Shown here: piece after piece, positions 7,683-11,455 of the stretch | Position numbering within the stretch: the first letter of the stretch is position 1 | How the letters are laid out: the number at the start of each line of letters is the position of its first letter | Origin: Escherichia coli | Lineage (GTDB): Bacteria; Pseudomonadota; Gammaproteobacteria; Enterobacterales; Enterobacteriaceae | Assembly: GCF_024700885.2 (NCBI RefSeq) | Contig: NZ_CP117016.1 | Reading direction: 5' to 3' (one strand) | Length of the DNA: 64,000 bases | The notes under the pieces: generated by a model | Database searches by the model: none | The model's input: only the letters and a program-made list of their open reading frames with translations | What the model was told of the DNA's origin: nothing | Position numbers and translations under genes: made by a program

Positions 7683-9023
7683 CTATATTAAGCGGATTTT
7701 CCCGGTTAACAGTTCCTGCATCATCCCTTGCTTAAGCTGGCGGGTTTTGTCCAGACGCTGTTGCAGGATCTGGATTTCCTTGTCCATATCGGAGAGGATG
7801 GCGGCGATGGCGGCTTGTTCTTCTGTATTTTCAGGTAATGGGATTTTAAAGCCCAACATATCTTTGTTAGTTATCTGATTGATAGTGGCACCCATAACTT
7901 CAGCGATTTGCTTTTGAATAATATCAGACTGGAATTGGTGAAATGTAAATCCATATATATCAGTTCGGAATACTGACATAAATGCACCGAATGCTGAGCC
8001 CTGCGCATTTTTGTCAATTAATGCGCATTTGCCAATAAGTTGGCGACTGCCATTTCTTACACATACCAAGATATCACCTTCTTTCACAATTGTACGCTCA
8101 GGTGGTTCTATGCTGACGAAGACGTTATCATCATAAGCTAAGTGATTATTTTGAATGTTGGATGAGCGTAATACCAATGTACCATAATCAGATGTATCTT
8201 CAGGTTTGTAAGTTAACCCAATAATGCAATTACCTAGCTCACCAAGATTAATACAATTCCAATCTTCAGGAATCTCCCCCAACTCGCTCTTTTTATATCC
8301 CTTAGCAGAGCCATCTTTGCGCAACGCAAACTGTGGCAAACGGGTTTTACCAGTCAGTAGTCGCTGCATAGTAGCGGTTTTAATGGCTTGTTTTTTAACG
8401 ATAAGCTTTTCTAGAGCTAGAATAAAATTATTAATATCAGATAATGAATCAGCAATAGCACTTTGCTCTTGCAAATTTGGGGGACATGGAATCAAATATT
8501 TTTCTATAGCAACTAGCGGCACACGACGGTGTCCCGCACTTCCCACCATTTCAGATTCCAGTGATGCTCTGAATTTTTTATCAGTTGTCCAAAAATAGAT
8601 GAAGCGAGAATCGGAGTCTTCATTTTCCCTTAATACATGAAATTCCGTACTCCCAAAACCTACATTAGTAGGTAAATCAGCGGTATGACATCCTTTTCCA
8701 TTTTCAAAACAAGGGGTTATTTTAGCTAATAAAACATCCCCTTTTTCAAAGTAAGTAAAACCACTTTTAACTTCTTTAAAAGGAAGTTGAGTATTATTTT
8801 TTAATTGTGCATCTTCACTAACATCCTGCATCCCAATAAATGAAACTAGCTCATAATCGCTGACTTTTTTTTTCTTTGTGTTTGTTTTAAACAGATTACC
8901 AAATGGTACGCAATCCCAATCCTCAGGAATCACGCCCACCTCAGTCAGTTTATACCCCGCAGGCACATCTTTCCCCGCCGTACTCGACCGTTGCTCATTC
9001 ACCATTAAATCCACCATCACCAC
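7683..9023 (-). CDS. hsdS: Type I restriction-modification specificity subunit (HsdS)
   Basis: 446 aa with two variable target-recognition regions separated by conserved repeats (...MQRLLTGKTRLPQF... and C-terminal ...MQELLTGKIRLI); 7-nt overlap with hsdM stop. Confidence 0.85.
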   Translation of the reverse strand: MVMVDLMVNEQRSSTAGKDVPAGYKLTEVGVIPEDWDCVPFGNLFKTNTKKKKVSDYELVSFIGMQDVSEDAQLKNNTQLPFKEVKSGFTYFEKGDVLLAKITPCFENGKGCHTADLPTNVGFGSTEFHVLRENEDSDSRFIYFWTTDKKFRASLESEMVGSAGHRRVPLVAIEKYLIPCPPNLQEQSAIADSLSDINNFILALEKLIVKKQAIKTATMQRLLTGKTRLPQFALRKDGSAKGYKKSELGEIPEDWNCINLGELGNCIIGLTYKPEDTSDYGTLVLRSSNIQNNHLAYDDNVFVSIEPPERTIVKEGDILVCVRNGSRQLIGKCALIDKNAQGSAFGAFMSVFRTDIYGFTFHQFQSDIIQKQIAEVMGATINQITNKDMLGFKIPLPENTEEQAAIAAILSDMDKEIQILQQRLDKTRQLKQGMMQELLTGKIRLI

Positions 9024-11455
9024 TCCAGCCCCATCGCCCGCAAATGCTCGGCCACTTTCTCGCTCAACGCCTCAACGGAGGCTTCAAGCGCTAGCAACGG
9101 TTCAGCATAACGCTCTTCCAGCTCCTTTACGCGCGACGCCAGTTGCTGGGTAATACGCTCAATCTCCGCCTTGATCCCTGCCTGCAACGTTGCCAGCCAC
9201 TTATCCTGCACTACCAGCGTTTTAATCGCTGCTTCATCCAGCGTGGGATAATGTTTAAACACCGCCCGATCCAGCGCTTCTTGTGCGGCTTTCAGCGCTT
9301 TTTTCGCACTGGCTTCGGCCTTAATTAGCGCCAGGCAGCGGTTCAGCACTGCCAGCTCATCTGGGCCGGCAGTGGTTTTCTTTAACTGTGCTAGACGGGC
9401 ATTCACCAGCTTTTGCGTCACCTTATCTTTATCGTTCTTCGCCTCGGCCAGCAGATCCTCTTCACCTGCCTGCTCCTCGATGAATTCCACTAGCTGACGA
9501 CTGGCTTCTTCACTGCGCTCCTGCGCGCGGTTCAGCGCATCCAGCAGTTCCGGGAAACAGCGAATTTCCACCAGCGAACGGGGCAGCACATCGGCCTTGT
9601 AGCGCCGTTTGGTAAACTCGAAATCGTGCGTTTCTTTCCAGATGTTTTTGCCATCTTTGCCTTTCACCGGCTGAAGCTCGCGGATTTGCGCGGCGGCTTG
9701 CCAGCCATCCTGCATAATCGCATACACATCGTCTTGCATGACATCAGTCCAGTAATCCATCAGGATCTGGTACACGCTGTATTTGTTCAGCAACTCACTG
9801 TTGGCGTACTGCGCCAATAGCATTTCGCTGATATCGTGGATTAGCGCTTTGGGTTTATCACCTTTGCGAATCTCTTCCAGACTTGCCTCTTTCACCCACG
9901 CTTTAAACGGTAGCAGGCTGCGGGTGGCAAAATCCTTAAACTCCTGATGCGCCAGAATGGTCGGTTTCACCTGTTGCGCGTTCACCTGCGCCCGACAGTA
10001 ACCGGGACGGTCGTCAGCAAACAGCACGTTGCGCAGGGCAGGGAATACCCGCCAGTAATCTTGCAAAGCATCCACATCGCGTGCCGGAATACCGCCCTGT
10101 AAGTGCGCGGTCAGATCGTGTAAATCTTCCGGCTCGCCGCTCTCGATATAGCGAGGAATATTCAGGTTGTAATCATTTCCGGCGATCTCGCTGGAGGGCA
10201 CCATCCGGCTGTAGCCAGGTACCGTTCGCTGATGGTTGAACACGTCCACAATGCGGTGAATATCTCGGCTACGCAGGCGGTTCTTGTTGCCATCTTTGAT
10301 AAAGCCCCGGCTGGCGTCGATCATAAAAATGCCTTTGCGGCTGTGGGCGTGCTCTTTATCAATCACAATGATGCACGCCGGGATGCCGGTGCCGTAAAAC
10401 AGGTTGGCTGGCAAACCAATAACGCCTTTGATATAGCCCTGCTTGATTAGATTTTCACGGATATTCGCTTCGGCGTTACCGCGAAACAGTACGCCGTGGG
10501 GCAGGATCACCGCGCCTTTGCCGGTACTTTTCAGGCTTTTAATGATATGCAACAAAAAAGCATAATCGCCGTTTTTTTCCGGCGGAATACCCCAGCCGAA
10601 GCGTTCAAACGGATCTTTTTTCGGCGTCAGCCCGTTGGTCCAGTTTTTATTGGAAAAAGGCGGGTTCGCCACGGCAAAATCGAAGGCTTTCAGTTTGCCG
10701 TTCGCCTCTTTCCACTGCGGATCGCTCAGCGTATTGCCCTGCCAGATTTTCGCGGTGGCATTGTTATGCAGAATCATGTTCATCCGCGCCAGCGCACTGG
10801 TAGCGTTATCCATCTCCTGGCCGAAAATCGACAGTCCGCGCCGGGCTTCATCATTCACTTTCAACAGCAGCGAACCAGAGCCACAGGTTGGGTCATAAAC
10901 CGTTGCATCTTGCGGAGTATCGGGAGTAATACCAATCACCTTCGCCAGAATACGTGACACCTCCGCTGGAGTGTAAAACTGCCCTTTACTCTTACCGGAT
11001 TCGGTTGCGAAGTGACGCATCAGATATTCATAGGCATCGCCCAGCAGATCGTCGCCTTCGGCCCGGTTGCTGGAGAGATTTAACCCTTCAAAGATACCGA
11101 CAAGCTTGCTCAGGCGGTCAATCATTTCCTTGCCTTTGCCGAGCTTATCTTCGTCGTTAAAGTCGGCTTCGTCGATGACGCCCTTCAGGCCGTTCTCTTC
11201 CGCCAGCTTGTGGATGATTTTGTTGATTTTGTCGCCGATCTCTTTGTCATTTTTCAGCGCAACCATATCGTCAAAGCTGGCTCCTTTGGGTATCACGATC
11301 ATCCCGTAAGGATCGCCTTTATACTTATCGGAAACGTACTTCATAAACAGCAGGGTCAGTACATAGTCTTTGTACTGGCTGGCGTCCATCCCGCCACGCA
11401 GTTCGTCGCAGCTTGCCCACAGGGAAGAATAGAGTTCGGTTTTTTTGATAGCCAT
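9017..11455 (-). CDS. hsdM: Type I restriction-modification methyltransferase subunit (HsdM), long form with ~300-aa C-terminal coiled-coil extension
   Basis: 812 aa; HsdM N-terminal domain (MAIKKTELYSSLWASCDELRG...), AdoMet motif I DPTCGSGSLL and N6-adenine motif IV NPPF; C-terminal third is Ala/Glu/Lys/Leu-rich and predicted helical. Confidence 0.85.
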   Translation of the reverse strand: MAIKKTELYSSLWASCDELRGGMDASQYKDYVLTLLFMKYVSDKYKGDPYGMIVIPKGASFDDMVALKNDKEIGDKINKIIHKLAEENGLKGVIDEADFNDEDKLGKGKEMIDRLSKLVGIFEGLNLSSNRAEGDDLLGDAYEYLMRHFATESGKSKGQFYTPAEVSRILAKVIGITPDTPQDATVYDPTCGSGSLLLKVNDEARRGLSIFGQEMDNATSALARMNMILHNNATAKIWQGNTLSDPQWKEANGKLKAFDFAVANPPFSNKNWTNGLTPKKDPFERFGWGIPPEKNGDYAFLLHIIKSLKSTGKGAVILPHGVLFRGNAEANIRENLIKQGYIKGVIGLPANLFYGTGIPACIIVIDKEHAHSRKGIFMIDASRGFIKDGNKNRLRSRDIHRIVDVFNHQRTVPGYSRMVPSSEIAGNDYNLNIPRYIESGEPEDLHDLTAHLQGGIPARDVDALQDYWRVFPALRNVLFADDRPGYCRAQVNAQQVKPTILAHQEFKDFATRSLLPFKAWVKEASLEEIRKGDKPKALIHDISEMLLAQYANSELLNKYSVYQILMDYWTDVMQDDVYAIMQDGWQAAAQIRELQPVKGKDGKNIWKETHDFEFTKRRYKADVLPRSLVEIRCFPELLDALNRAQERSEEASRQLVEFIEEQAGEEDLLAEAKNDKDKVTQKLVNARLAQLKKTTAGPDELAVLNRCLALIKAEASAKKALKAAQEALDRAVFKHYPTLDEAAIKTLVVQDKWLATLQAGIKAEIERITQQLASRVKELEERYAEPLLALEASVEALSEKVAEHLRAMGLEW

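Follow-up and report, generated by a model that had tools for sequence, protein, structure and literature searches.

A conserved C-terminal module of about 365 residues marks a widespread long-form HsdM lineage and may serve in the assembly of type I restriction-modification enzymes

The subject of this study is the methyltransferase (MTase) subunit HsdM of a type I system for restriction and modification that is encoded in a 64,000-nucleotide stretch of Escherichia coli DNA (assembly GCF_024700885.2, contig NZ_CP117016.1), referred to as the window throughout. As stated in a preliminary description of the sequence, the open reading frame (ORF) at 9017-11455 on the minus strand encodes an HsdM of 812 amino acids (aa), and the two peptides quoted there are found at residues 718-734 and 775-805. 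The catalytic domain and its NLNIPRY motif are followed by an extension of ~365 aa (residues ~445-812, window 9020-10123), which is standard in a very large lineage of long-form HsdM proteins and not an add-on peculiar to this locus. On balance, we favor the view that residues ~445-812 constitute a lineage-defining C-terminal module that would act as a built-in assembly part of the M2S1 and R2M2S1 complexes, with its terminal helix corresponding to the classical HsdS-binding tail. The locus itself is known, with an HsdM that receives routine annotation and an island that has already been examined by experiment; the extra module is the previously undescribed part. No discussion of the length or the C-terminal region of this HsdM was found in the searchable literature, and the experimental study of the near-identical island from EPEC (enteropathogenic E. 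coli) is silent on HsdM size (PMC12255303).

The long-form lineage is present in ~5% of complete E. coli genomes as well as in Helicobacter pylori, in Vibrio and Aeromonas, and in many Gammaproteobacteria from the sea. Defence cargo embedded in operons, for instance DarTG, Gabija-like and GmrSD-like genes, is usually carried by this lineage. To our knowledge, the mechanistic models of type I enzymes all rest on short-form HsdM proteins (EcoKI, EcoR124I, PacII, T. tengcongensis). The role of the module would tell whether long-form enzymes assemble or are controlled differently, and whether the carrier communicates with its cargo. For annotation, an 812-aa HsdM is normal in this lineage and points neither to a fusion nor to an adaptation specific to DarTG.

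Extent and predicted structure of the extension

HsdM_N (residues 10-121) and N6_Mtase (135-441) are the sole Pfam domains in HsdM and leave residues 445-812 uncovered; a Pfam search with the C-terminal 368 residues at E values of up to 10 returned only chance matches below the cut-offs. The match to TIGR00497 (hsdM, NCBIfam) stops at residue 444, and solved HsdM chains of 495-544 aa (3lkd, PacII M1 and M2, EcoR124I) align to residue ~450 at most. The preliminary description was right in noting an extra C-terminal region but placed it at 9017-9950 with ~300 residues, while it actually begins at ~10123 and is correspondingly longer.

Based on an alignment of 150 family members, AlphaFold2 modeled the whole HsdM with a pLDDT (predicted local distance difference test) value of 94.8 and a predicted template modeling score (pTM) of 0.91, and the C-terminal 368 residues alone with values of 96.9 and 0.88. 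The first part of the extension (residues 445-634) is predicted to consist of short helices and beta strands; it carries the motifs LMDYWxxxMQDDVY and DLIPxxLxxxRYF and has no Pfam match. The second part is predicted to form helices at residues 635-662, 681-693, 698-738 and 741-782 and includes the conserved motif EIKxLVVxDKW (W753). A rich content of alanine (17.4%), leucine (14.5%), glutamate (14.0%) and lysine (9.3%) characterizes residues 641-812 and is lacking in residues 446-640. The view of the C-terminal third as an Ala/Glu/Lys/Leu-rich helical sequence thus holds for the last ~175 residues with their long helices, but not for residues 445-634, and the term coiled-coil-like is partly right at best.

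The high pTM of both the region alone and the whole protein points to a single chain folded compactly and makes a free, extended dimer of coiled-coil type less likely. The literal picture drawn in the preliminary description, a true intermolecular coiled coil driving HsdM-HsdM dimers or higher oligomers, would agree with the Ala/Glu/Leu/Lys richness and with helices that are ~40 residues long. However, the long helices (635-662, 698-738, 741-782 and 787-807) are interrupted by loops, a pTM of 0.88-0.91 speaks for one compact chain, the first 190 residues of the extension are not helical-repeat sequence, and a crude heptad score of our own is modest, peaking at 0.47 (residues 701-728) and 0.40 (residues 771-798). 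Such a coiled coil is consequently considered improbable.

A Foldseek search with the model of the whole HsdM matched the MTase part alone (query-normalised TM-score, TMq, of at most 0.50), leaving the extension uncovered, and a search with the extension alone against the PDB yielded nothing at E <= 1e-3. The extension is, as far as the model goes, a region with a confident fold prediction that lacks both a Pfam model and a solved counterpart.

Distribution of the long-form lineage

A search with the extension alone, covering 1.84 billion cluster representatives, returned 2,209 representatives at E <= 1e-3 and 1,175 at E <= 1e-10, and every informative match was HsdM, whole or fragmentary. No stand-alone homologue of the extension was substantiated: the two candidates inspected (L091:1354-4955 and L090:1016-1771) are frameshifted or insertion sequence (IS)-disrupted pieces of hsdM. 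Many metagenomic “proteins” of ~245 aa that start at the conserved Met566 are gene-caller artefacts and not stand-alone domains.

The 120 closest MTase cores (74-95% identical) all belong to colinear long forms or to truncations or internal deletions thereof. The idea of variable C-terminal modules on one core was accordingly dismissed, as the odd lengths of 470-790 aa represent colinear truncations and a few internal deletions. One of the latter is the 488-aa HsdM P0270 (L009:8001-9467), whose core is 94% identical to that of the window and in which residue 465 is joined to residues 784-812. In effect, this is a natural short-form-like HsdM; it is located in an RRDM-type island (see Genomic locus) with an hsdR cut to 266 aa.

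In a genome scan of one genome per species with two narrow peptide patterns, 285 matching stretches were confirmed and 80 loci kept. The 71 full-length HsdM proteins in these loci measure 803-904 aa, with a median of 813. The hosts are mostly Gammaproteobacteria, with additional occurrences in Actinomycetota, cyanobacterial, Desulfovibrio and Collinsella assemblies. A distant case, built alike over its entire length, is the 817-aa HsdM of H. pylori (WP_042636116.1), which matches the extension over query positions 4-364 (E = 3e-45, 30% identity), belongs to a cluster of 1,235 sequences and is encoded in a locus with hsdR and a YgjP-like gene, as in the window. The length is therefore unusual in comparison with EcoKI/EcoR124I-type HsdM proteins but the rule within its own lineage, although the region concerned is an uncharacterized one.

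In P0178 (1037 aa), P0181 (1014 aa) and P0147, the HsdM core, the extension and a single Methylase_S target-recognition domain (TRD) are joined in one polypeptide. These proteins are presumably half-specificity fusions that act as homodimers.

Conservation and co-variation

Residues W569, D575, D576 and G584 (each at least 90% conserved) and W753 are near-invariant among the 150 aligned sequences, and the conserved residues of the extension are mostly aromatic and hydrophobic core positions. Comparison with five enterobacterial orthologues gave ratios of nonsynonymous to synonymous substitution rates (dN/dS) of 0.087-0.095 in the extension, compared with 0.03-0.05 in the core. The extension is under strong purifying selection; diversifying selection is not supported overall (dN/dS ~0.09). 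Because the extension is mildly acidic (net charge -8, isoelectric point 5.6), a role in DNA binding is unlikely.

Co-variation of the subunits was analyzed in 47 complete operons (L010-L089 and the window). Mean pairwise identity was 84% for the HsdM core, 63% for the extension, 69% for the HsdM terminal helix, 79% for the N-terminal 700 aa of HsdR, 68% for the C-terminal third of HsdR, 62% for YgjP, 75% for the conserved regions of HsdS and 18% for the HsdS TRDs. The MTase core, HsdR and YgjP diverge in close step with one another (rho 0.79-0.87), while the extension follows each of them less closely (0.50-0.71). The extension may thus have evolved at a pace, or recombined in a way, that is in part its own.

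The terminal helix and a proposed role in assembly

In the model proposed here, an insertion of ~340 residues would separate the catalytic domain from the canonical helix that binds HsdS. The terminal helix (residues 787-807) would pack, like the C-terminal helix of classical HsdM proteins, on the HsdS coiled coil to which both conserved regions contribute. The insert, with its alpha/beta subdomain and its bundle of long helices, would make the core of the M-S (and maybe M-R) assembly larger and stiffer and may touch HsdR. Several observations are consistent with this arrangement. Short-form HsdM proteins end in ...LKVELAKLEVEMAGYLKELGYGA directly after NLNIPRY, and long forms end in ...LEASVEALSEKVAEHLRAMGLEW. 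When a profile of the long-form terminus was compared with short-form tails, the two were aligned in register at both C-termini. The median of 7.4 bits is a weak match, obtained with one profile only and equaled by 6 of 1920 shuffles of matched composition. Of all HsdM segments, the terminal 27 residues show the best co-variation with the conserved regions of HsdS (rho 0.77; partial correlation 0.46 when controlling for the core), and the tail also shows a partial correlation of 0.31-0.33 with the C-terminal third of HsdR. In addition, all five in-frame deletion variants retain the last ~30 residues. A link between HsdM and HsdS is further indicated by the one-base overlap of their genes, in which the hsdM stop codon and the hsdS ATG have one base in common (junction TGATG), and by the fusions of M, extension and TRD.

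Other results weigh against this proposal. An hhalign comparison gave a probability of 3.9% and aligned the short tail to another helix (636-665), a hidden Markov model (HMM) of the whole region matched short tails no better than shuffles, and phmmer and profile searches of the PDB with the tail returned only chance coiled-coil matches. The body of the extension exhibits weak partial correlations with any partner (0.13-0.27), and higher values would be expected for a tight interface. Furthermore, pairwise-distance correlations are non-independent observations, and the deletion variants may be pseudogenes, as exemplified by P0270 beside its truncated hsdR. Because the tail-homology signal depends on the profile used, the insertion model is presented as one that we infer, with moderate confidence, from sequence: the terminal helix would be the classical tail and the inserted part would have an assembly role. 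The terminal helix is probably, on weak evidence, the HsdS-binding tail. A role in assembly, as suggested in the preliminary description, appears to be still the most plausible one.

Alternative roles

Instead of, or beyond, stabilizing the M-S core, the extension might dock or regulate HsdR, thereby switching between modification and restriction/translocation or contributing to restriction alleviation. In EcoR124I, the C-terminal part of HsdR contacts the methyltransferase. The C-terminal third of the window's HsdR (~320 aa, residues ~710-1031, window 2836-3800) shows no detectable similarity to that of a short-form, YgjP-linked system (L092:5645-8926), even though the nuclease and motor parts of this HsdR pair are 33% identical. 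The co-variation of the HsdM tail with the same third of HsdR points in this direction as well, and the sole natural variant without residues 466-783 has a truncated hsdR in its island. However, this variant is a single case, C-terminal regions of HsdR are generally poorly conserved across type I families, and the partial correlation of the extension body (residues 445-785) with the C-terminal third of HsdR is just 0.07 when controlling for the MTase core and the N-terminal region of HsdR. Docking or regulation of HsdR is considered rather unlikely.

Alternatively, the ~340-residue insert could be a fold not described before that provides the lineage with a regulatory or sensing function that is absent from EcoKI/EcoR124I-type enzymes. 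Such a function might consist in gating the loading of HsdR, in resisting or sensing DNA-mimic anti-restriction proteins, or in reporting the state of the enzyme to the cargo in the slot between hsdS and hsdR, as a generic PrrC-like guard. The lack of a solved homologue, the invariant acidic DD pair in a conserved surface-type motif, the history partly decoupled from that of the MTase core and the near-universal cargo slot are compatible with this possibility without demonstrating it, and we regard it as a rather distant prospect.

The extension might also be a binding platform for the YgjP-like M48 peptidase, e.g., for directing the proteolysis of HsdR or for sensing the state of the enzyme. 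All 45 related operons that leave room for it have a YgjP-like gene after hsdR, and one occurs in the H. pylori and P0163 loci as well. The same family is found after hsdR, though, where HsdM lacks the extension. In two such systems, from Klebsiella IncF/HI1B plasmids and Acetobacter pAPA32-020, YgjP/SprT-like genes occur in the same M-S-R-peptidase order, while HsdM measures 507 aa (Klebsiella) or 508 aa (Acetobacter), has a core 41% identical to that of the window and ends right after the MTase domain; 491 plasmids carry such a gene. Unlike the window, the two inspected short-form systems have no cargo gap between hsdS and hsdR. Among all partners, YgjP shows the lowest correlation with the extension (rho 0.50), with a partial correlation of 0.14 when controlling for the MTase core and ~0 when the N-terminal region of HsdR is added. 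The occurrence with short forms and the lowest co-variation weaken the idea of a peptidase-specific platform, also raised as a peptidase tether in the preliminary description, and we give it little credence.

A tether or guard for embedded cargo, here DarT/DarG, by analogy with PrrC held inactive by EcoprrI, would be the least plausible role and is hardly to be expected: in 48 of 52 complete long-form operons, at least 0.6 kilobases (kb) of cargo separate hsdS from hsdR, and PrrC-EcoprrI sets a precedent of functional coupling (10.1101/2024.01.29.577857), but the cargo varies while the extension is conserved throughout, P0121 is arranged as M-S-R-YgjP with zero cargo, and embedding between type I restriction-modification genes is a general phenomenon. 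DarTG was present in 11 of the 52 complete operons with the same extension, the others harboring unrelated cargo or almost none, and the DarTG-specific tether put forward in the preliminary description is rejected by this distribution. From the variety of cargo beside one conserved domain, it therefore follows that there is no specific tether. The cargo slot (L010-L089; window 5950-7670) spans 0.6-5.6 kb in the 48 operons. Besides DarTG, it contains GmrSD-like pairs (GmrSD_N/DUF7834), an OLD-TOPRIM and UvrD (Gabija-like) pair, ABC ATPase with Schlafen/AlbA_2, AlbA_2-HATPase_c_4 and a NucS/YhcG-like nuclease.

Catalytic core and relation to known type I enzymes

The window's HsdM exhibits the hallmarks of an HsdM protein in its domains, in motifs I and IV and in its operon context. 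The bit scores exceed the respective cut-offs for PF02384 (348; cut-off 20.4), PF12161 (64.3; 24.5) and TIGR00497 (282.8; 242.75), and the S-adenosylmethionine (AdoMet) motif I YDPTCGSGSLL and the catalytic motif IV (V)ANPPFS can be read in the translation. The gene forms a unit with an hsdS carrying two TRDs and an hsdR carrying nuclease and superfamily 2 (SF2) motor, which is the composition of a type I system. In phmmer searches against solved chains, E values ranged from 1e-78 to 1e-65 for PacII M1, 3lkd and EcoR124I and reached 4e-21 for EcoKI; in Foldseek comparisons with the whole HsdM model, the HsdM chains of the former three gave target-normalised TM-scores (TMt) of 0.74-0.80. The core is thus nearer to EcoR124I (1e-65) than to EcoKI, with 28% identity in the Foldseek alignments, a sequence likeness that is insufficient for membership of a classical family such as IC. 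The 812-aa protein departs from the classical ~490-540 aa architecture of families IA-IE, and of IC in particular. Its N-terminal helical domain appears ~40 residues shorter, judged by alignment gaps, than in the 507-aa short-form HsdM and solved homologues, and N6_Mtase starts at residue 135 instead of ~168-175.

Classical HsdM proteins (PacII M1, 7vru/7vs4; S. thermophilus, 3lkd; EcoR124I, 7bst; EcoKI, 2y7c) share with the window's HsdM the N-terminal helical domain, the gamma-class N6-adenine MTase with DPxCGSG and NPPF motifs, and the operon with hsdS and hsdR. The solved classical proteins, of 495-544 aa, run on for a few tens of residues past NLNIPRY, in contrast to ~365 residues in the window's HsdM. 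The “intact MTase” of Vibrio vulnificus (7eew, 638 aa) is an M-S fusion, and some long-form relatives are likewise fused to a single TRD. The added part of 7eew is a TRD. The added part of the window's HsdM is not, and the fused long-form relatives carry their TRD behind the extension. The type IC system EcoprrI, in which the anticodon nuclease PrrC is embedded, resembles the window's system in carrying defence cargo inside a type I operon; in the window, the cargo lies between hsdS and hsdR. Functional coupling between cargo and enzyme is possible in both; coupling through the window's HsdM, however, is unsupported, as the cargo varies while the extension remains constant.

Genomic locus

The seven genes of the minus-strand operon are arranged in the order rptR-hsdM-hsdS-darT-darG-hsdR-M48 (Table 1). 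Many E. coli chromosomes share the hsdM DNA sequence at 100% identity, and it is found in 257 of 5426 complete E. coli genomes. The same seven-gene order is known from RRDM (RptR-RMS-DarTG-M48), an island of EPEC E2348/69, where RMS denotes the restriction-modification system. The window's DarG and M48 protein accessions are identical to those given for that island (PMC12255303), and its HsdM is a close allele of the EPEC HsdM WP_000985463.1, alike in architecture from end to end and without a difference in kind. For the EPEC island, protection against phages was shown, as was repression by RptR via TAGCTA repeats, of which the operator contains three; the published activity for the EPEC allele is the phage defence of the whole island only (PMC12255303). 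A pattern search in the window revealed two TAGCTA copies at 11767-11772 and 11776-11781, 9 bp apart and 33-47 bp upstream of the rptR start, which, counted as exact hexamers, match the RptR operator as defined for EPEC (PMC12255303).

Table 1. Genes of the operon and predicted parts of HsdM, with positions in the window.
Feature	Position	Strand	Basis
rptR, helix-turn-helix (HTH) repressor of the island	11495..11734	-	RefSeq annotation; PF24718 HTH_73 on homologue in L009
hsdM, 812 aa, WP_000985465.1, “type I restriction-modification system subunit M”	9017..11455	-	ORF list, translation
HsdM N-terminal helical domain, residues 10-121	11093..11428	-	PF12161 E = 2.4e-17
HsdM N6-adenine methyltransferase catalytic domain, residues 135-441	10133..11053	-	PF02384 E = 6.7e-104
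HsdM extension part 1, predicted mixed alpha/beta subdomain, residues 445-634	9554..10123	-	AlphaFold2 secondary structure, pLDDT 97-98
HsdM extension part 2, predicted Ala/Glu/Leu/Lys-rich long helices, residues 635-785	9101..9553	-	AlphaFold2; composition
HsdM predicted terminal helix, residues 786-812, ending in ...PLLALEASVEALSEKVAEHLRAMGLEW	9020..9100	-	Helix 787-807 in AlphaFold2
hsdS, two target-recognition domains	7683..9017	-	PF01420 in two stretches; RefSeq coordinates
darT, embedded cargo	7014..7670	-	PF14487 E = 3.1e-53; NF048013 262.6 bits
darG, embedded cargo	5950..7017	-	NF048014 451 bits; RefSeq coordinates
hsdR, 1031 aa	2836..5931	-	HSDR_N, SWI2_SNF2 and T1R_D3-like domains; TIGR00348 546 bits
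YgjP-like / M48-family metallopeptidase	2120..2836	-	PF01863 E = 1.3e-61

The same genomic island includes, at window ~13850-23450 (offset from L001 16877-26436), a GTPase-family gene, an Ag43/Cah autotransporter and IrmA, as well as DUF932, an “antirestriction protein” gene and yeeS (CP4-44-like module). The presence of an anti-restriction gene near a type I system is a curious pairing. On the far side of the peptidase gene, remnants of IS3, IS5 and IS600 and an EspI fragment are located.

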